Assembly: GCA_964591445.1 (NCBI GenBank)
Contig: CAZQAW010000004.1
Location: 1 to 62,605 of the forward strand
Origin: an uncultured Candidatus Saccharibacteria bacterium
Lineage (GTDB): Bacteria > Patescibacteriota > Minisyncoccia > Phycocordibacterales > UBA9973
Direction of reading: 5' to 3'
DNA length: 62,605 bases
A program made the translations under genes and the position numbers. The notes below the pieces were generated by a model. The model had not been told where the DNA came from. It ran no database searches and saw only the letters and a list, made by a program, of their open reading frames with translations. Positions 3,195 through 51,220 of the stretch are shown here, piece after piece. How positions within the stretch are numbered: position 1 is the stretch's first letter; each line of letters starts with the position of its first letter.

Positions 3195-4292
3195 ATGAGC
3201 ATCATACTTTTCATCGTTATCTTGGCAGTGCTTGTCATCTCGCACGAGTTCGGGCATTTTATTGTCGCACGCGCATTCGGTGTGCGAGTAGACGAGTTCG
3301 GCTTCGGGTATCCGCCTCGCCTTGCAAAGCTTTTTAAAAAAGGGGATACAGAATACACTTTGAACTGGCTGCCATTTGGAGGCTTTGTGAAAATCTTTGG
3401 AGAAAACCCAGACGACGAAAACACCAACGGCCCCGACAAAGCGCGAAGCTTTGTTCACAAACCAAAATGGCAGCAAGCGCTCATCCTGGTTGCTGGAGTT
3501 GTAGCAAACTTTGTGCTTGCGTGGATTCTCATTTCCATCAGCTTTATGTCTGGCTCTCCAGCTTCGACAGCGAGCGTGCCGTCTGGTACGACTATTACCG
3601 ACGCCGAGCTTGTCATTCTTGATGTCACCAAAGGTTCTCCGGCAGAAAATGCCGGGCTTGTGGTGGGGGATTCTATTTCTGCAATCCAATCTGGAAATGA
3701 AAAAGTAAACAATCCAACTCCGGATGGGCTTCGAGCATTCATTGCAAAACACGGCACGAACAACCTTACGCTGTATCTAAAAGATGAAGGCGCAGAGCGC
3801 ATTGTTACCGTCACGCCAGTCATGTCAGAAGGTGCAAATGTGCCGATCATCGGCATCCAGATGGATCAAGTCGGTATCGTGAAGCTTTCATTCTTCAAAG
3901 CGCTTGGCTACGGCTTTACCGAGTCTGTGCATATGACGGGTGCAATAGCAGTGTCTTTGTTTGACCTTGTGAAAAATGCTGTTGTTGGCAAAGCGGATTT
4001 TAGTCAGATTACCGGGCCAGTCGGCATTGTGGGTATTGTTGGAGACGCGGCAAAGTTCGGCTTCATCTATCTGCTTTCATTTACTGCGCTCATCTCGCTC
4101 AACTTGGCAGTCATCAACCTCATCCCATTCCCAGCGCTCGACGGAGGCCGCTTGCTCTTCATCGTTATAGAAAAAATAAAAGGCAGCCGCATCAAACCGC
4201 AAGTTGCCAACTGGTTGAACACCATAGGTTTTGGCTTACTCATCCTGCTCATGCTTGTGGTGACGTATCACGATATTGTGAAGTTGTTTTAA
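3195..4292 (+). CDS. rseP: RIP metalloprotease RseP (M50, PDZ)
   Basis: HEFGH, PFGGFV, NLIPFPALDGG motifs. Confidence 0.95.
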   Translation: MSIILFIVILAVLVISHEFGHFIVARAFGVRVDEFGFGYPPRLAKLFKKGDTEYTLNWLPFGGFVKIFGENPDDENTNGPDKARSFVHKPKWQQALILVAGVVANFVLAWILISISFMSGSPASTASVPSGTTITDAELVILDVTKGSPAENAGLVVGDSISAIQSGNEKVNNPTPDGLRAFIAKHGTNNLTLYLKDEGAERIVTVTPVMSEGANVPIIGIQMDQVGIVKLSFFKALGYGFTESVHMTGAIAVSLFDLVKNAVVGKADFSQITGPVGIVGIVGDAAKFGFIYLLSFTALISLNLAVINLIPFPALDGGRLLFIVIEKIKGSRIKPQVANWLNTIGFGLLILLMLVVTYHDIVKLF

Positions 4293-4309: not shown

Positions 4310-4346
4310 AAAAACGCATGATTATTTTGTATAATCATGCGTTTTT
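4310..4346. terminator. Bidirectional terminator between convergent genes
   Basis: Perfect 16-bp stem AAAAACGCATGATTAT / ATAATCATGCGTTTTT, 5-nt loop. Confidence 0.85.
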
Positions 4347-4757
4347 GTTATTTGATTCAACTGGTTTACTCAAGCCGTACGAAAATGCAGTCATAAACAT
4401 AATTACGACTACGCAGTATGCTGAAAACTTTGGCATAGTTTCAAGAAAAAAAGTTGGATAAAACATTTTCTGGTAAATGTAAAAAAATACACACCCTGTG
4501 GCAATACCCGTAGTTCCAAATACTACTGTGCATAAACAAGCTCCTATTTCGTCAAATTGTTTTGCAATGTAGTACACTCGTAAGCTAGCAATGATTGTAT
4601 ATGTTACAAGCACTGCAAGTACTATCTTTACAAATATTTCTAATTCATTTGCGTTTGCAATGTGTAACTTTTGTTGTGATGCAATGCATGTGCTTATCAT
4701 GAGTAGAATAAGCATACATGTGCTACTTACGTTTATTATTTTTTCAAGTGTCCCCAT
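4335..4757 (-). CDS. Small multi-pass membrane protein (cassette 1)
   Basis: About four hydrophobic segments; start set at MGTLEK downstream of the repeated promoter. Confidence 0.7.
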   Translation of the reverse strand: MGTLEKIINVSSTCMLILLMISTCIASQQKLHIANANELEIFVKIVLAVLVTYTIIASLRVYYIAKQFDEIGACLCTVVFGTTGIATGCVFFYIYQKMFYPTFFLETMPKFSAYCVVVIMFMTAFSYGLSKPVESNNKNA

Positions 4758-4779
4758 GTGCTCTTGTTTTTTAGATTTC

Positions 4780-4816
4780 TTTTCAAAATACCACCAATCC
4801 ACACCATTTGTCAAAT
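4780..4816 (-). repeat. 37-bp direct repeat copy 1, reads as a sigma70 promoter on the minus strand
   Basis: ATTTGACA-AATGGTGTGGATTGGTGG-TATTTTGAAAA; identical at 5417-5453 and 6334-6370. Confidence 0.95.
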
Positions 4817-4818
4817 TA

Positions 4819-4845
4819 AAATCCCTGGTAGTATGCCAAGGATTT
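4819..4845 (-). terminator. Terminator of cassette 2, abutting the next promoter
   Basis: Minus strand AAATCCTTGG-CATACTA-CCAGGGATTT; G-U wobble only on the minus strand. Confidence 0.75.
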
Positions 4846-4861
4846 GAATTTTATAGTAAGT

Positions 4862-5404
4862 TTAAATCAATAGTATTAAATTATAAGATATGTGAACTAG
4901 TGACGTAAGAACAAAAGCTTTACTTATGTTCTTACTTTGCCACATATCTGTTTCAAAGATATAGCCACCGTATCTTAAATAGATAACTGAAAACCACACT
5001 CCAGACGTTCCTTGTACCAGTAAGCCATAAGGGTTACTATGGGCAATTCCAAACAACAACGAGCTTATGCCTACCGCAAGACAGATAATAAGTGGATGGT
5101 TTTTATTAAATTTCCAAATGAACATATCTTGAACAAATGTTAATGGCACAACTCTAAAAATAAGTTCTTCAATTGGACCGAATAAAACAATTTGTCTTAT
5201 TGTGGGTCTTACTCCACTGGTTTCCTCTGCTGCCAGTTCAAAATTTGCAAAAAGTACCAATAAAAATAGAGTTAAAACCGCAAAGACAAAAAGCATACAT
5301 AATCCAAAAAAATATCCAACCACAAATGCCGATAAGCTCAAATCTCTTGGATTAAAGATTTTTTTGCATAGACTGATAAAAAGCAAATTAATAGAGTATC
5401 CCAT
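4862..5404 (-). CDS. CPBP family intramembrane protease (CAAX/Abi-like, cassette 2)
   Basis: EELIFR (EExxxR), FGIAH (FxxxH), HISYN (HxxxN) motifs in a hydrophobic protein. Confidence 0.85.
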   Translation of the reverse strand: MGYSINLLFISLCKKIFNPRDLSLSAFVVGYFFGLCMLFVFAVLTLFLLVLFANFELAAEETSGVRPTIRQIVLFGPIEELIFRVVPLTFVQDMFIWKFNKNHPLIICLAVGISSLLFGIAHSNPYGLLVQGTSGVWFSVIYLRYGGYIFETDMWQSKNISKAFVLTSLVHISYNLILLI

Positions 5405-5416
5405 ATTTATTTTTTC

Positions 5417-5453
5417 TTTTCAAAATACCACCAATCCACACCATTTGTCAAAT
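5417..5453 (-). repeat. 37-bp direct repeat copy 2 (promoter)
   Basis: Identical to copy 1; identity with copy 1 extends to 46 bp (5413-5458 vs 4776-4821). Confidence 0.95.
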
Positions 5454-5458
5454 TAAAA

Positions 5459-5488
5459 GGTCCTGGAAATAGTACTATTCCCAGGACC
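5459..5488 (-). terminator. Terminator of cassette 3
   Basis: Minus strand GGTCCTGGGAATAG-TA-CTATTTCCAGGACC then TTTT. Confidence 0.85.
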
Positions 5489-5491
5489 TAC

Positions 5492-6319
5492 TTAGTGTAC
5501 CTTTATAGAATTTTCTTTTTCAATAATATGGAAAATTCTCTTGTTTGAATTTGTGTATGCCTTAAGCAACCTGAAGCCCATTTTTTCATGAAAAAGTATC
5601 GAACTATGATTATCTGGTGATACTTCTGTAATAACATGATCAACCGGAGATTCTTCAAAATGTTCATCAAGTTGACTAAACAAATGTCGGTACAACTGTT
5701 TCCCAATGCCACATCCAAAATATTTTCTATCTACGCCAATCTGGGCGATATACAGCGTGTTGTTCGGTTTTTTGCCTGTATGGACATCAACCATTTTCAC
5801 AAACTCGTTCATGAAAGGATGACTCTGTACGTCATATTTCATGAGCGCAATCAGGTATCCTAGGCATGCGTTTGATTTCTTGTCGATCGCTATGTATATT
5901 TGAGAAAAACCTCCTTTCTTGTTGAGGATAATTTTTTCTAAATATGATTGCGGGGTGAGAAGTGTGACAAAGCCTTTCTTGCTGTCTTTGGCTAGTAGGT
6001 AGTTCTGATGATTTTTAATCTGTAATTCAATGATGTGCGGTATGTCTTTAAAATTCGCATGTTTTATGTATATCTGTTTGTCAGACCGCTTGGGTGTTTT
6101 AGTATAAGTTACCTTGAGCTTGTAGTAAGCCATATGTTGGGCTTTTGTTGACCCAGGTTCTACTGAAATAACTTCCGCTTTTTTTACCTTGAGTAGGTAA
6201 CCCGGAACGTGTTTATGGAGTTCAATTTCGGCAGCATCACGGATATGCTTTGTGCGCTGGCCTTCTTGAGCCCAATGGTCAGGTTGGAATGTTTGGACGA
6301 TGTAAGTTTCTGTTGCCAT
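5492..6319 (-). CDS. GNAT family acetyltransferase with unknown N-terminal domain (cassette 3)
   Basis: LYIAQIGVDRKYFGCGIGKQLY acetyl-CoA motif A; N..SILFHEKMGF motif B. Confidence 0.85.
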   Translation of the reverse strand: MATETYIVQTFQPDHWAQEGQRTKHIRDAAEIELHKHVPGYLLKVKKAEVISVEPGSTKAQHMAYYKLKVTYTKTPKRSDKQIYIKHANFKDIPHIIELQIKNHQNYLLAKDSKKGFVTLLTPQSYLEKIILNKKGGFSQIYIAIDKKSNACLGYLIALMKYDVQSHPFMNEFVKMVDVHTGKKPNNTLYIAQIGVDRKYFGCGIGKQLYRHLFSQLDEHFEESPVDHVITEVSPDNHSSILFHEKMGFRLLKAYTNSNKRIFHIIEKENSIKVH

Positions 6320-6333
6320 TTGTTTGTTTTTTA

Positions 6334-6370
6334 TTTTCAAAATACCACCAATCCACACCATTTGTCAAAT
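6334..6370 (-). repeat. 37-bp direct repeat copy 3 (promoter)
   Basis: Identical 37-mer upstream of the GNAT gene. Confidence 0.95.
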
Positions 6371-6426
6371 GGCGATTTGCTTTGCTTGAGAAAACATGTT
6401 ATTCTAAAAACACTTTTGCCTTCGGG

Positions 6427-6458
6427 CCAGCCTTCACCAAGGTTACGGCCTGGCAGGC
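6427..6458 (+). repeat. GC-rich short palindromic element in the typA leader
   Basis: CCAG-CCTT-CACC-AAGG-TTACGGC-CTGG-CAGGC nested stems in an AT-rich spacer; translates PSPRLRPGR. Confidence 0.55.
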
Positions 6459-6498
6459 ATTTTTATTTTATTTGCTTCATTTTTAAGGATATTTATTT

Positions 6499-8298
6499 AT
6501 GGAAATTCGAAACATTGCGATCATCGCCCACGTGGACCACGGAAAAACGACTCTTACAGACAAACTCATGACCCAGTGCGGGATGGTAGAAGAGGGCGTG
6601 ACGATGGATTCAAACTCTATCGAACAAGAACGTGGAATCACGATCTATGCAAAAAACACTTCTGTTAACTACAAAGGCACAAAAATAAATATCGTAGACA
6701 CGCCAGGACACGCGGACTTTGGAAGTGAAGTTGAGCGTGTACTTCGCGCTATCGACTCGGTGCTTTTGCTTGTCGACGCGCAAGAAGGCCCGATGCCGCA
6801 AACTCGTTTCGTTTTGAAAAAGTCTCTAGAGCTTGGTTTGAAGCCGATCGTGGTCATCAACAAGATCGACAAGCCGGCCGCAGACCCGCACAAAGTGCAC
6901 GAAATGGTGCTTGAACTTTTCATGGAGCTCGGTGCAAACGACGAACAGCTCGATTTTGAAACGATCTACGCCATCGGCCGCGAAGGCGTTGCGAAAAGAA
7001 AACTCACAGACGAATCAAAAGACTTGTCTCCGCTTTTGGATTTGGTGTTAGAAAAAGTTGCTCCAGTTTCTGGATCGCTCGAAGACCAGCTTGTCGCGCA
7101 GGTGTTCAACTTGGGTTACGACAATTTCTTGGGGCGAATGGCTGTTGCGCGCGTATACGCTGGCTCTATCAAAATGGGGCAGACGATCATCGTCAAACAG
7201 TCAAACGGAACTTCTCGTACAGCGCGTGTCACAAAACTTTTTACATTTGAAGGAACAACTCGCAAAGAAGTACAAGAGGCGACGTATGGCGACATCGTGC
7301 TTGTCGCCGGAATTCCAGACGTATATATTGGAGAAACTATTTGCGGGAATGCTGAAACGCCCTCTCTTCCATCGATCTCGATCGACGAGCCAACTATCTC
7401 TCTTAACTTTTTGGTGAACGACTCGCCGTTTGCTGGTCGCGAAGGCAAGTTCGTCACCGGACGACAAATCCGCGAACGCTTGGAAAAAGAACTCGAAGTG
7501 AACGTTGGTTTGAAAGTAGATTTTTCTCCGGAAGAGTCTGGCAACGGCGGACCAAGTTTCTATAAAGTCTACGGTCGCGGAGAACTTCATATTGCAGTCT
7601 TGCTTGAAAATATGCGCCGCGAAGGATACGAACTTCAGGTGTCTCAGCCGCAAGTTATCATCAAAGAAGTTGATGGCGTGATGTCAGAACCATTTGAAGA
7701 ACTCATCATGGACGTGCCCGAAGAATCTTCAGGAACAGTTATCGAGAAAATCACGAAGCGTCGCGGAATGATGACACACATGCACGAGAAAAATGGCATT
7801 ATGCGATTGGTTTTTGATATTCCAACTCGCGGACTTTTGGGCTACCGAGGGCAATTCATCGTCGATACGAAAGGCGAGGGAATCATGTCTTCACGCGTGA
7901 GCGGATTTAAAGAAAAAGTGGGCGATATCAAAAAACGCGAAGCAGGTTCAATGGCCTCTATGGTGTCTGGAAAAGCGGTTGCGTTCGCGCTTGCCAACTT
8001 GCAAGAGCGCGGCACGATGTATATTGGCCACGGAACGGAAGTATATGAAGGCATGGTGGTTGGAAACGTCTTGAAAGGCGAAGAAATGTCTGTAAACCCG
8101 ACAAAAGGGAAGCAGCTTACAAACATGCGTGCATCCGGTTCTGACGAAGCTATCGTCCTTAAGCCTGCGTATACGCTCTCTATCGAGCGCGGGCTTGAGC
8201 TCATGGGCGAAGATGAATATTTGGAAGTTACGCCGCAGAGTGTACGTTTGCGCAAGAAGTATTTGACCGAGCTTGACCGAGTGCGTTCCAAGCGCTAA
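6499..8298 (+). CDS. typA: Translational GTPase TypA/BipA
   Basis: [33 protein letters not shown] motifs. Confidence 0.97.
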
Positions 8299-14107: not shown

Positions 14108-14162
14108 ATATTCCCGAAATAAAAACCCTGACAAAAACGGGGTTTTTTGCTATACTTCCCAT

Positions 14163-15935
14163 ATGAAAATGCAAACTACGTGGGATTTGAAGAAGCTGTA
14201 TAACTCGCTTGATGATCCTCAGATGACGCGCGACATGGACGCGCTCGAAAAAGCTTATGCCGCTTTTGAAAAGAAATACAAAAATAACACAGCTTATCTT
14301 GCCGATAATACCAAACTCCTCCAAGCCCTCAAAGAATACGAGAAACTGATTGAATTAAAAAATCCAGGCATCTATCTTTTTTTGTATAAGGATATTGATT
14401 CCAGTAATCCAAAGGTTGAAGCAAAAAGCACAATGATTTCGCATCAGATGAGTGTTGCTTCAAACCGCATCGTATTTTTCTCCATCAACCTCGGCAAGCT
14501 TTCAAAGATACGACAGAAAGAACTTCTTGCTGATACAAAGTTTGCACATTTCTGGTATTTCTTGAAAGTGCTTTTCGACCAAAGCATGCATGATTTGACC
14601 GAAGCCGAAGAAAAAATAGTGAATCTGCTTTCACTTCCGGCGTATTCGATGTGGGTAGACGGACAGAAAAAGCTTCTTGGGATACAAACAATAAAATTCA
14701 AAGGTAAAGACATGCCGTTCACCGAAGCACTTGAGAAAGTAGCTTCGCTTCCAGTGAAAGACCGCCGCGCTGTGTGGAAACTTATTATTGAAAAAATGAA
14801 ATCAGTAAGTGCTTTTGCTGAAAGTGAACTCAATGCTGTCGTTACAGAAAAGAAAATTATAGATGAGCTTCGTGGTTACACAAAACCTTATAGCTCAACC
14901 GTACTCAAATACCAGAACGATGAAGAATCTGTCGAAAGTCTGGTGGGAACTGTAACTTCGCAGTTCCACATCGCTCAGCGTTTCTATAAAGTGAAGAAAC
15001 AGCTTTTAGGATTGCCGGAATTAACATACATCGACAAGTCTGTGAGCGCGGGTGAAGGTAAAAACAAGAAAAAATTTCCTTTTGACCAAGCAGTCAAGAT
15101 AGTAGAGAGCGCATTTTCAAAAGTAAACAAAAAATATGCAGATTATCTCCGCTCCTATCTTCAAGAAGGACAGATAGATGTATTTCCACGAAAAAATAAA
15201 CGAAGTGGTGGATACTGCGCTCCGTCTTTTGGCAATCCGACGTATATTCTACTTAATCACACAGATGACTTTCATTCAGTTACGACTCTTGCTCATGAGA
15301 TGGGGCATGCGATACATTCTGAATTTTCAAAAACACAACCGGCTTTGTATGAAGATGTAAGCACTTCTGTTGCTGAAGTTGCAAGCACGTTTTTTGAACA
15401 TTTTGCATTTGACGAAGTCTTTGAAACACTTTCAGAGAAAGAAAAAATGTATGCGCTTCACGACAGATTGAATAACGATATTTCGACTATCTTTCGACAG
15501 ATTGCGCTTTTTAACTTTGAAAATGAGCTTCATGTGACTATTCGTGAAAAAGGAACTCTTTCAAAAGATGAAATCGCAAAATTACTTGCTAAACATATGC
15601 GAGCGTACTTAGGCCCGGCTGTCAAAGTAACTGATGATGATGGCTATTCATTTATGTCCTGGCCGCATATCCGCTATTTCTTTTATGTATATTCATATGC
15701 TTATGGGCAGATTATTTCTCATGCTTTGTATGCAAAATACAAAGAAGACAACTCATATATACAAAAGGTGGATGAGTTTCTGAAAGCTGGCGGAAGCAAA
15801 AGCCCGGAGCAGATTTTCAAAGATATCGGTATCGATACGACCAGGCCTTCATTTTTCGAAGCGGGTTTGAAAAGCATCGAAGAAGACGTCATCCGTTTGG
15901 AAAAAATGGTCAAAAGTGCTACAACTAAAAAATAA
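14163..15935 (+). CDS. pepF: M3B oligoendopeptidase F
   Basis: TWDLKKLY N-terminus, LAHEMGH zinc motif, FYVYSYAYG. Confidence 0.9.
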   Translation: MKMQTTWDLKKLYNSLDDPQMTRDMDALEKAYAAFEKKYKNNTAYLADNTKLLQALKEYEKLIELKNPGIYLFLYKDIDSSNPKVEAKSTMISHQMSVASNRIVFFSINLGKLSKIRQKELLADTKFAHFWYFLKVLFDQSMHDLTEAEEKIVNLLSLPAYSMWVDGQKKLLGIQTIKFKGKDMPFTEALEKVASLPVKDRRAVWKLIIEKMKSVSAFAESELNAVVTEKKIIDELRGYTKPYSSTVLKYQNDEESVESLVGTVTSQFHIAQRFYKVKKQLLGLPELTYIDKSVSAGEGKNKKKFPFDQAVKIVESAFSKVNKKYADYLRSYLQEGQIDVFPRKNKRSGGYCAPSFGNPTYILLNHTDDFHSVTTLAHEMGHAIHSEFSKTQPALYEDVSTSVAEVASTFFEHFAFDEVFETLSEKEKMYALHDRLNNDISTIFRQIALFNFENELHVTIREKGTLSKDEIAKLLAKHMRAYLGPAVKVTDDDGYSFMSWPHIRYFFYVYSYAYGQIISHALYAKYKEDNSYIQKVDEFLKAGGSKSPEQIFKDIGIDTTRPSFFEAGLKSIEEDVIRLEKMVKSATTKK

Positions 15936-25089: not shown

Positions 25090-25198
25090 AACAAATTTTT
25101 ACCCCAGCCAAAATACCGGCCGGGGTTTTTATGTACGGATACTTGACATATAGTATTAATTATGATAATATGTACTCGAACATAAAAAACAATTTTAT

Positions 25199-27411: not shown

Positions 27412-27509
27412 CCACAAATTTACAATAAAAAGTCCTCCTCACCGAGGGCTTTTTATTTGACAAATTATAAAAACATGATACTATAAAGAAAATATAAAAT
27501 TTAAATCAA

Positions 27510-30766: not shown

Positions 30767-30884
30767 GCAAAGTAAAAAATAATTTAATAAAAGCACAAAA
30801 AGAACCCTAAATCTAGGGTTCTTTTTGTGCTTGCTATTTTGTATTATTTGTTGTAATATATGTAAAACTAAAAATTATATTAAT

Positions 30885-31295
30885 ATGGCAAATACACAAT
30901 CAGCTTATTTTAACAGAACAGTAAGTTATTTAACAAATTTAATCCACAATAAAAGAAAGGATGATGGGGGCAACCAAAGACTCAATTCAAAATTGATTAT
31001 TTTGGAAAGTGTCTTCGCCACAAAAATTAGTGAGCTTGGGTTATTGCCTAGGACATTTAATGTCTTAAATAATTATAGTTCAAGCGAATTTTCTAAAATT
31101 AATACTTTTGAAGATTTAATGCACTTTGCTCCGGACGATTTTATTAAATTTAGAGGTTTTGGAAAAAAAAGCATGACGGATCTTATGAAAGTCATCTCTG
31201 AGAAAGGTTTTGAGTACGGAGAATACCAAGGCTCCAAATCTGCCCGAAATGATTGGTTCCATAATAATAATTGTTGGAAATTTGTTGGGAACTGA
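30885..31295 (+). CDS. Stand-alone RNA polymerase alpha-CTD-like protein
   Basis: ISELGLLPRTFNVL...INTFEDL...KFRGFGKKSMTDL aligns with the rpoA tail IDTLDLSTRTLNAL...IRTVGGI...LPGMGEKGIQEI. Confidence 0.75.
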   Translation: MANTQSAYFNRTVSYLTNLIHNKRKDDGGNQRLNSKLIILESVFATKISELGLLPRTFNVLNNYSSSEFSKINTFEDLMHFAPDDFIKFRGFGKKSMTDLMKVISEKGFEYGEYQGSKSARNDWFHNNNCWKFVGN

Positions 31296-33339: not shown

Positions 33340-33489
33340 ATGAACCAGAATGACCAAACAATATACAGTAAAATTATCCTATGGGTTTTCTTGTTCTCCA
33401 TACTTTCTGCCTGCGTGCAATCATACTATCACTATATTGTAAAAAAAGATTTTCTTGTTACAGAAGAAGCTTCTCTTGAAACTAATTAA
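33340..33489 (+). CDS. 49-aa single-TM small protein (absent from ORF track)
   Basis: MNQNDQTIYSKIILWVFLFSILSACVQSYYHYIVKKDFLVTEEASLETN; TGA-TATAGT -10-like box upstream. Confidence 0.5.
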   Translation: MNQNDQTIYSKIILWVFLFSILSACVQSYYHYIVKKDFLVTEEASLETN

Positions 33490-33877
33490 AATCTTCCTCT
33501 TTGTAGCCGCGTCGTTCAAACCAATCTTCCTCGTAGTCTCTGTAATTACAAAGAAGTTCTTCGCCTTCATTGATGTCACGCATAGCAATATCTTTGTCGG
33601 GTGTTGATTGGATATTTGGAGTATTTGAAGAATGATTGATAAACCTTTGGTCATCCGCGCACATGATAAATTTGTTGATTGAATGATCGTAATAACAATG
33701 CCATAGGAATTTTTCTCTCGTTTCTTTTTCTAAAAAAGAAACATCTTTCTCCGTAAACTCAATATCAAGACCAGGGTCTCGCTGCCACGTAATTGTTCCT
33801 TTTGGAATAAATTGCGCAGCAAAAAGACCGATACCGTGAGTATCGCTTGTTTTAACACTTGTTCGGACTCGTAACAT
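33482..33877 (-). CDS. SET domain protein (putative lysine methyltransferase)
   Basis: HGIGLFA, RFINHS, EELLCNY SET motifs. Confidence 0.92.
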   Translation of the reverse strand: MLRVRTSVKTSDTHGIGLFAAQFIPKGTITWQRDPGLDIEFTEKDVSFLEKETREKFLWHCYYDHSINKFIMCADDQRFINHSSNTPNIQSTPDKDIAMRDINEGEELLCNYRDYEEDWFERRGYKEEDFN

Positions 33878-38613: not shown

Positions 38614-39228
38614 TTATTGTCTATTTTTTAAAGCATTTTTGAGAGTATCTCTGTCAGAATATTCGAGTTCAGTGCCAGTGGAAAGTCCGCGGCCGAGACT
38701 TGAGATTTTCATTTTGTAGCTTTCGGCTTTTTTGTCCAAGACTTCGCGAATATAGGTGTCTGTATGGTCGCCATTTGGCGAAAGGGAAAAGGCGAGGATG
38801 ATTTCTTTGAGCGTTCCAGCTTTGCCATCAGCTTCGACACGCTTTTCGATTTCGTTGATGCGCACACGGCTTGAAGTATCTTTTTCTACCACCGGCACAA
38901 GTCCACCGAGCACAAAATAAAGCCCTTTGTAGACCCCGGATTTTTCCATGCTTTCGATATCAGCGTCTTTTTCGACAATCATGAGCGAAGTTTGGTCGCG
39001 GCGAGCGTCGTTGCAAATAAAACACATATCGCTTTCTGTTTTTTTGAAAAAGCGGAAACATTTCTTGCAGCGAGTAATATGCTTTTTGATTTCACTTATA
39101 CTGTCAGCCAAGTCGTTGACATAATATCCATCTGCAGAAAGCAGAAAATACACAAAGCGCTTTGCTTGGCGCTCGCCAATGCCCGGGAAGTGTGCGAAAA
39201 GTTTTGCAAGTTTAGAAAGTTCGTCCAT
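38614..39228 (-). CDS. recR: Recombination mediator RecR
   Basis: FPGIGERQAKR, CKKC...CFIC zinc finger, YFVLGG, GTELEYSD. Confidence 0.95.
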   Translation of the reverse strand: MDELSKLAKLFAHFPGIGERQAKRFVYFLLSADGYYVNDLADSISEIKKHITRCKKCFRFFKKTESDMCFICNDARRDQTSLMIVEKDADIESMEKSGVYKGLYFVLGGLVPVVEKDTSSRVRINEIEKRVEADGKAGTLKEIILAFSLSPNGDHTDTYIREVLDKKAESYKMKISSLGRGLSTGTELEYSDRDTLKNALKNRQ

Positions 39229-51191: not shown

Positions 51192-51220
51192 ATTGTATCA
51201 TTAATTTATATACTTGTCAA
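51192..51220 (-). promoter_or_regulatory. Near-consensus sigma70 promoter
   Basis: TTGACA-17 nt-TACAAT with extended TG. Confidence 0.8.

Follow-up and report, generated by a model that had tools for sequence, protein, structure and literature searches.

Composite terminator/promoter motifs known as PeSLs (promoter-early stem-loops) flank ORFans in T4-type phages (Arbiol et al. 2010, PMC2839356; Comeau et al. 2014, PMC4122927). An ORFan lying between two such motifs in one phage is represented by a single motif in its relative, and mini-circles have been detected (PMC2839356). Two other systems come close: replacement flexible genomic islands (PMC4033161) and, in Neisseria, the so-called minimal mobile elements (Saunders & Snyder 2002, cited in PMC1538595). 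Here we describe an islet between rseP and typA in a contig of an uncultured Candidatus Saccharibacteria bacterium (CAZQAW010000004.1, assembly GCA_964591445.1; the whole stretch of 62,605 nt is called the window). It holds three single-gene cassettes, for a membrane protein, a CPBP protease homologue and a GNAT acetyltransferase, each preceded on the minus strand by a copy of one repeat, R, which is predicted to be a promoter. To our knowledge, promoter-mediated cassette shuffling has so far been documented for T4-type phages (PeSLs), and we know of no such case in a cellular chromosome. Bacteria of the candidate phyla radiation (CPR, or Patescibacteria) have tiny, streamlined genomes, and the gain and loss of their accessory genes is little understood.

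The islet is made up of promoter-open reading frame (ORF)-terminator modules that differ in number and identity among related strains, with junctions at the edges of R. We think that these modules are probably shuffled by homologous recombination, both at R and in the conserved flanks.

Promoter-linked modules and their variation among strains

The 37-mer TTTTCAAAATACCACCAATCCACACCATTTGTCAAAT occurs exactly three times in the window (coordinates in Table 1), in agreement with an earlier reading made from the sequence alone (the sequence-only reading). No further copies with up to 3 mismatches were found in the window (the shuffled control gave 0 matches in 100 shuffles), and even at up to 13 mismatches no diverged relatives were detected there. 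When the entire window was scanned, R was the sole exact direct repeat of at least 22 nt within 4 kb. Copies 1 and 2 are the same over 46 nt, and copy 3 matches them at 41 of the 46 positions (89%). Promoter scoring found TTGACA-18-TATTTT on the minus strand with a TG ahead of the -10 in each copy, again as had been claimed. R is thus predicted from consensus matches to be a sigma70-type promoter (ATTTGACAAATGGTGTGGATTGGTGGTATTTTGAAAAGAAA). The first ATG follows the -10 at a distance of 27 nt in the membrane protein gene, 17 nt in the CPBP gene and 19 nt in the GNAT gene. In the public gene calls, two of these genes run into R: the membrane protein is called as 159 aa from a TTG start (4758-4814) and the GNAT protein as 289 aa from an ATG start (6320-6361). 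Both starts are probably wrong and the proteins over-extended, because the starts sit upstream of the predicted transcription start.

The R spacer contains a TGGTG...TGGTG direct repeat with 10-nt spacing. At the edge of R, ATTTGACAAAT forms an 11-nt perfect palindrome. It has a second site at 27455, at an unrelated terminator-promoter junction, and because of that site it is more likely to be an extended -35 of this organism than a dedicated recombination site. No window promoter resembles R beyond the -35. As single-stranded DNA, R is unstructured (minimum free energy 0 to -0.3 kcal/mol, z=+1.3), which is worse than shuffled sequences. An uptake-sequence or Chi-like role of the GT-rich spacer was considered and dropped, since no sub-motif of R is over-represented in the window.

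Comparison contigs (L-numbers) were collected by exact-protein look-ups and from members of 90%-identity clusters, and they come from about a dozen other samples. The flanking DNA of contigs from other samples is 94-97% identical to the window. Among these strains, with an average nucleotide identity of ~95%, at least four arrangements of the rseP-typA interval are found. Type A (membrane, CPBP, GNAT) is found in the window and in two unitigs of sample SRR12762304 (L001, L004). Type B (membrane, CPBP) is found in the JGI contigs L085, L087 and L086 and in the Logan contig L095. Type C has a different terminator hairpin, a 131-aa membrane protein and a 98-aa protein (L094+L003, L096+L088, L002); its islets in L002, L003 and L088 are linked to rseP via L094 and L096. 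Type E has the 131-aa protein alone (L092), and its join to rseP was not seen. The membrane gene of cassette 1 is carried by L085, L087, L090, L091, L093 and L095. The GNAT gene was seen only in the strain of the window and in sample SRR12762304, and is absent from L085, L086, L087 and L095. The 140-aa and 131-aa membrane proteins show no homology to each other.

Types A and B differ by one unit exactly: part of R, the GNAT 5' untranslated region (UTR), its ORF and terminator, and part of R. At the position of the single R in L085 and L095, the window reads R-GNAT-terminator-R, a difference that one crossover between direct R copies is expected to produce. The typA-side junction, GCAAATC(G/A)CC followed directly by ATTTGACAAATGG..., and the CPBP 5' UTR are the same in both types. 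Over all strains, four different sequences stand upstream of R (the typA junction and the GNAT, CPBP and 98-aa gene terminators) and four different cargos downstream of it (membrane, CPBP, GNAT and 131-aa). In types C and E, R stands ahead of the unrelated 131-aa gene, and in type C the terminator of the 98-aa gene precedes R. The 98-aa module has a degenerate promoter version (ATTTGACAAAAATGAAAAGAAG...), and with it a 45-nt stretch of the typA promoter region gives way to unrelated sequence of the same length (L002, L003, L088). The 4819-4845 hairpin accompanies the CPBP cassette in L085, L093 and L095, and the 4310-4346 hairpin belongs to the A/B islet type, L094 and L096 carrying AAAAAAGCGATCAGAAATTTCTGATCGCTTTTT instead. 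L002 and L003 encode the identical TypA protein next to cargo that differs from that of the window. The comparison proposed by the sequence-only reading thus turned up gain, loss and replacement of cassettes, junctions at R edges and a fourth cargo, and none of the observations that this reading had named as refuting it was made.

One JGI contig shows a different join. In L091 (1990-2115), a segment with rseP, the membrane gene, R and the CPBP 3' part runs straight on into the region upstream of rplN (L14), the result either of chimeric assembly or of a real rearrangement by which CPBP is truncated.

The cassettes differ from one another and from the flanks in their divergence histories. L093 differs from the window by 4.9% in rseP and by 0.7% in the membrane gene (Fisher p=3e-5). 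L085 differs by 5.9% in the membrane gene, 1.1% in CPBP (p=3e-5) and 4.2% in typA. At the 3' end of rseP (4226-4259), 11 third-position single-nucleotide polymorphisms (SNPs) are packed into 34 nt in comparison with L093 and L096, and divergence then falls abruptly. Haplotype blocks at this rseP end are shared across islet types in all combinations. Such a SNP peak at the boundary has been described for genomic islands that are exchanged through homologous recombination (PMC4033161).

Orthologous R copies differ between strains at 0-4 of 37 positions (0-11%), about the flank rate. The -10 TATTTT is changed to TAATTT or TAGTTT, the spacer shows one G to C change, and TGG beside the -35 is replaced by CAA; the -35 and the -10 positions T1, A2 and T6 are invariant in all 8 full copies. 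Judged from these substitutions, R appears to evolve as a working promoter and otherwise about neutrally, without exceptional constraint. As the spacer and the -10 vary at a nearly neutral rate, selection is insufficient to explain 37-46 shared positions, and the R copies therefore need common descent via duplication or recombination. The zero divergence claimed for R holds in this strain only, since copies in related strains are 1-4 bases apart; the type B strain L095 has one base difference between its two copies, and L085, also of type B, has three. The identity of the three copies had also been taken as a sign of recent stacking, and this argument is weaker than it looks. The window allele is the consensus of all copies, and, given how far the strains are seen to have diverged, the chance of three substitution-free copies is roughly estimated at ~6%, a low value though not an extreme one. 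Gene conversion as a necessary cause of the identity was rejected: it is not required for a consensus allele whose threefold identity is mildly improbable.

The islet has 33% GC overall (31-39% within the 2.1-kb block) vs ~48% in rseP and typA. Its three genes are unrelated, as the sequence-only reading had it, and the cargo proteins have few or no relatives. The 140-aa membrane protein has no family match in Pfam, PADLOC or PHROG. The CPBP protein has an NCBIfam MroQ-like match (E=2.6e-5) besides its Pfam match. The best relative of the GNAT protein shows 47% identity over residues 84-273 alone; no relative of its unique N-terminal extension of ~80 residues was detected among 1.84 billion representative proteins. 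A blastn comparison of the islet with phage (50,697 records) and plasmid (72,556 records) sequences gave no match. In PHROGs the cargo has generic acetyltransferase matches alone, and PADLOC returned nothing credible. A phage or plasmid origin of the islet was dropped, having no support from blastn, PHROG or PADLOC.

The cargo ORFs are intact in all strains compared. The ratio of nonsynonymous to synonymous changes is ~1 in the cargo (5:1 in the 98-aa gene, 2-3:4 in CPBP) and low in rseP/typA (0:54 to 4:30), and by this measure the cargo consists of fast-evolving accessory genes. By their look they are accessory or immunity-type genes, and their function is a guess. Of the cargo, only the CPBP protein is in a family with known bacteriocin-immunity members. 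Neither PADLOC nor NCBIfam assigned an immunity role to the cargo.

Each gene has its own predicted terminator, and at R copies 1 and 2 the TTTTAA T-tract of the upstream hairpin enters the -35 directly, which bears out what had been described for these two copies. The terminators that abut R (4819-4845, 5458-5489 and L003 590-620) are unrelated in sequence, yet each stem contains CCTGG...CCAGG (CCWGG). The common CCWGG in three stems could be chance in GC-poor DNA.

Table 1. Coordinates of the rseP-typA islet and its flanks in the window; promoter and terminator features are predictions
Feature	Position	Strand	Remarks
rseP, M50 site-2 protease	3195..4292	+	Conserved left flank; PF02163, E=1.2e-57; 3' end is a recombination boundary
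Bidirectional intrinsic terminator	4310..4346	both	Common to rseP and membrane gene; 16-bp stem, ~-19 kcal/mol on both strands, z=-6 to -7.5
Cassette 1 cargo, 140-aa multi-pass membrane protein	4335..4757	-	4-5 hydrophobic segments
R copy 1	4776..4821	-	37-mer core 4780-4816; -35 TTGACA 4814-4809, -10 TATTTT 4790-4785
CPBP cassette terminator	4819..4845	-	10-bp stem in DNA fold of 4770-4865; T-tract abuts -35 of copy 1
Cassette 2 cargo, 180-aa CPBP/Rce1-like intramembrane protease homologue, Abi type	4862..5404	-	PF02517, E=1.1e-8
R copy 2	5413..5458	-	37-mer core 5417-5453; same 46 nt as 4776-4821
GNAT cassette terminator	5458..5489	-	14-bp stem, -12.9 kcal/mol, z=-4.1; T-tract abuts -35 of copy 2
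Cassette 3 cargo, 275-aa GNAT acetyltransferase	5492..6319	-	PF00583, E=2.7e-10
R copy 3	6330..6375	-	37-mer core 6334-6370; back to back with typA promoter region
Right junction, typA promoter and leader	6371..6498	+	Candidate TTGCTT-17-TATTCT, then hairpin 6417-6459 and T-run
typA/bipA	6499..8298	+	Conserved right flank; Pfam GTP_EFTU and BipA_C

Proposed recombination at R and competing explanations

The pathway that we infer has two levels. Each module, on the minus strand behind R, consists of one ORF with a short A-rich 5' UTR ahead of it and a predicted intrinsic terminator after it. At the first level, direct R copies sharing 37-46 bp of identity would recombine homologously, and a single cassette would be deleted or inserted. 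Loop-out would give a circle with one R, and insertion could take place via the reverse event or by a double crossover with incoming DNA. The inserted gene would get a ready promoter, and its terminator would insulate the next gene. At the second level, homologous recombination in the conserved flanks would swap whole islet types, including the rseP-side terminator and the 45 nt of the typA promoter region; this level is similar to the Neisseria minimal mobile elements. A dedicated recombinase would not be needed. RecR is encoded in the window (38614-39228), a point in favor of such a pathway.

Other points weigh against it. The difference between types A/B and C/E extends outside R, to the rseP-side terminator and the typA promoter, and R alone is insufficient to produce it. 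No recombination event or circular intermediate was observed, and the crossover point within R cannot be placed, as the copies are identical. With 37-46 bp, the identity is close to the least that RecA-dependent exchange requires, and rates may be low. What is said of promoter activity, start sites and termination is predicted from consensus matches and folding. R was found at this locus only. Scans of genome, viral and metagenome contigs for the 23-mer ATACCACCAATCCACACCATTTG, and of metagenome and viral contigs for the 21-mer AATCCACACCATTTGTCAAAT, gave 0 matches, two results that say little because the same collections also missed known R carriers (the window's own genome and the JGI contigs L085-L087 and L093). 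Analogous repeat arrays were not found in 80 related or unrelated loci; one candidate, L005, was rejected because its repeats lie inside coding sequence.

The sequence-only reading had proposed an integron-like gene-capture array with the promoter itself as the recombination site. In a true integron-like system, R or its ATTTGACAAAT edge would be the attachment site of a site-specific recombinase encoded elsewhere, for example one of the Xer type as in pdif modules/IMEX. Cassette junctions do recur at the ATTTGACAAAT edge and all cassettes have one orientation; as the visible genome amounts to 62.6 kb, a recombinase could also act in trans. We nevertheless consider this very improbable. Pfam scans of ~60 ORFs over the 62.6 kb found no integrase, recombinase or transposase domain, just as the earlier reading had seen no recombinase. 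R does not take up an attC-like single-strand fold, and by inspection it has no 11-6-11 dif layout, the right arm GATTGGTGGTA and the reverse-complemented left arm agreeing at 3 of 11 positions. The presence of ATTTGACAAAT at the unrelated promoter at 27455 speaks against a dedicated site, and mosaic SNPs in the flanks are typical of homologous recombination. L085 also counts against an integron-like label, having the same two genes in the same order and yet diverged promoter copies. An assembly artefact, in which the repeat collapsed or misjoined strain contigs into a chimeric array, is extremely improbable. It is true that the Logan unitigs L001 and L004 end inside R and that L091 may be chimeric. 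Against this, R measures 37-46 nt, a length that ordinary reads span, and has unique flanks on both sides of each copy. The order membrane-R-CPBP-R-typA recurs in at least 6 independent assemblies in which the copies differ and the order is unambiguous, and the Logan unitig L004 independently shows R-GNAT-terminator-R.

A shared regulatory element deserves more weight, although we still regard it as unlikely. R would then be a strong promoter with an operator in its spacer, serving one regulon and either selected or imported ready-made, and genes would be exchanged by the flanks or by ordinary indels with R uninvolved. The invariant -35 and key -10 positions in 8 of 8 full copies fit such an element, and the TGGTG...TGGTG spacer could bind a regulator. 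Flank-based replacement is clear between types A/B and C/E, and consensus TTGACA promoters also precede other low-GC ORFans of the window. The near-neutral variation of the spacer and -10 across orthologous copies is not what this explanation would lead one to expect, nor is an exact bounding of the GNAT indel by two R copies. Across R copy 1, from the membrane gene to CPBP, divergence from L085 drops from 5.9% to 1.1%, and the lack of another R-like promoter in the window beyond the -35 also speaks against a regulon. Homologous recombination at R together with exchange in the flanks remains the reading that we prefer.

A wider version would be promoter-defined capture and shuffling in CPR/Patescibacteria, in which cassettes with one conserved promoter circulate as circles or as taken-up DNA and enter the genome at whichever copy is already resident, with the help of a recombinase in trans or with no dedicated recombinase at all. 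This is a doubtful extension and quite unlikely as it stands. If true, it would amount to an 'integron without an integrase', with cheap turnover of accessory or immunity genes expressed on arrival in ultra-small genomes.

Genomic context and other variable sites

The window is bacterial chromosome. It carries mreB, holB, frr, rseP, typA, alaS, ribosomal protein genes, rpoA and grpE-dnaK-dnaJ, and further dnaB, recR, murG/ftsW and several aminoacyl-tRNA synthetase genes. The nearest species representatives are Candidatus Nomurabacteria and other Patescibacteria metagenome-assembled genomes, with RseP identity of at most 57%. The genomes of Ca. Nomurabacteria and their like keep mreB-holB-frr-rseP; typA is not nearby and they are uninformative on the islet. 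In the typA leader, past the candidate typA promoter, a strong hairpin at 6417-6459 (-24.3 kcal/mol, z=-3.1) with a T-run behind it looks like a terminator or attenuator before typA. In L002 and L003, ~30 nt of this hairpin are missing and a GCC-TCCG-GGC mini-hairpin is left.

A second strain-variable insertion is found between holB and frr (1929-2640). It contains a 200-aa ORF (1981-2583, 34% GC) with its own predicted TTGACA-17-TATTCT promoter and no family match. This ORF is absent in L085, L087, L089, L090, L094 and L096, and L093 has a 225-aa S-adenosylmethionine (SAM)-methyltransferase gene in its place. Between mgtC and alaS, a pepF-like M3 oligopeptidase gene (590 aa, 14157-15935) sits right before the alaS start codon; it is absent in L085 and L086, in which alaS comes after the same leader.

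Other perfect TTGACA-N16-18-TAnnnT promoters were predicted at 25143, 27457 and 28408 (plus strand) and at 51220 (minus strand). The ORFs behind these four promoters (186, 110, 113 and 109 aa, respectively) have low GC and no family match, and the units look like moron-type single-gene units. The segment 27430-27500 has the same layout as the R islet: its terminator hairpin and T-tract lie directly against ATTTGACAAAT. At 57419-62472, a defence-type cluster of low GC (31-36%) encodes a type I restriction-modification HsdM with a helix-turn-helix, HsdS, a Shedu SduA_C-domain protein and a DUF3800 protein with an adjoining DUF3800-V RNA (59941-60055, 63 bits). The window also encodes a stand-alone 156-aa protein that is the RNA polymerase alpha C-terminal domain alone (30825-31295) and, on the minus strand, a 131-aa SET-domain protein (33482-33877).

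Comparison with described cassette systems

Integrons consist of IntI, attI, Pc and attC, and the islet resembles them in being a one-orientation, single-gene array with a recurring separator and strain-variable content. The integron-like label given by the sequence-only reading nevertheless fails on integrase, attC and Pc; its separate modules and cassette shuffling are supported, and the integron analogy is not. There is no IntI-type integrase beside the array, which is flanked by rseP and typA, or elsewhere in the 62.6 kb. R is unstructured, lies 5' of the ORF and is a predicted promoter, whereas attC is folded and lies 3' of the ORF; such hairpins as the islet has are unrelated terminators, with one in every cassette. 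The predicted promoter and terminator are separate for each cassette, whereas integron cassettes use a common Pc. Xer-dependent modules (pdif/IMEX) differ in that R has no 28-bp dif-like site, only the 11-nt ATTTGACAAAT being palindromic. The rAID-1 orphan-immunity arrays of Bacteroidales (bioRxiv 10.1101/471110) share the skewed GC, the repetitive intergenic sequences and the small accessory genes, but they have a conserved XerD-family recombinase, none of which was found in the window, and up to 31 genes.

Phage morons are similar promoter-ORF-terminator units of deviating GC between unrelated genes. They are defined in prophages and have no common promoter, whereas no phage genes were found in the islet. 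The minimal mobile elements and flexible islands also have variable genes between the same conserved pair without mobility genes, with homologous recombination in the flanks and SNP peaks at the boundaries. An internal repeated junction is not part of those models, whereas here the shared promoter splits the islet into singly exchangeable units.

The locus is a concrete case in which a 37-46-nt promoter appears to be both an expression signal and a portable homology for single-gene swaps. If this is general, sites of gene flux in uncultured lineages would be recognizable by their repeated promoters, and assembly breaks and N-terminally over-extended gene calls at such sites would be explained. 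The likeness to PeSL cassettes is close. In both, a stem-loop terminator and a sigma70-type promoter (predicted here) stand directly upstream of ORFans in a hyperplastic region, an ORF between two motifs corresponds to a single motif in close relatives, homologous recombination between motifs is proposed and the cassette brings its own promoter and terminator. The differences are that the islet lies in a CPR bacterial chromosome with no phage match and has 1-3 cassettes at one locus. Its promoter is near-identical over 37-46 nt with cassette-specific stem-loops and no Shine-Dalgarno element, whereas PeSLs are a degenerate motif family over ~100 bp. By this analogy, the islet is best read as a cellular analogue of PeSL shuffling and not as an integron.

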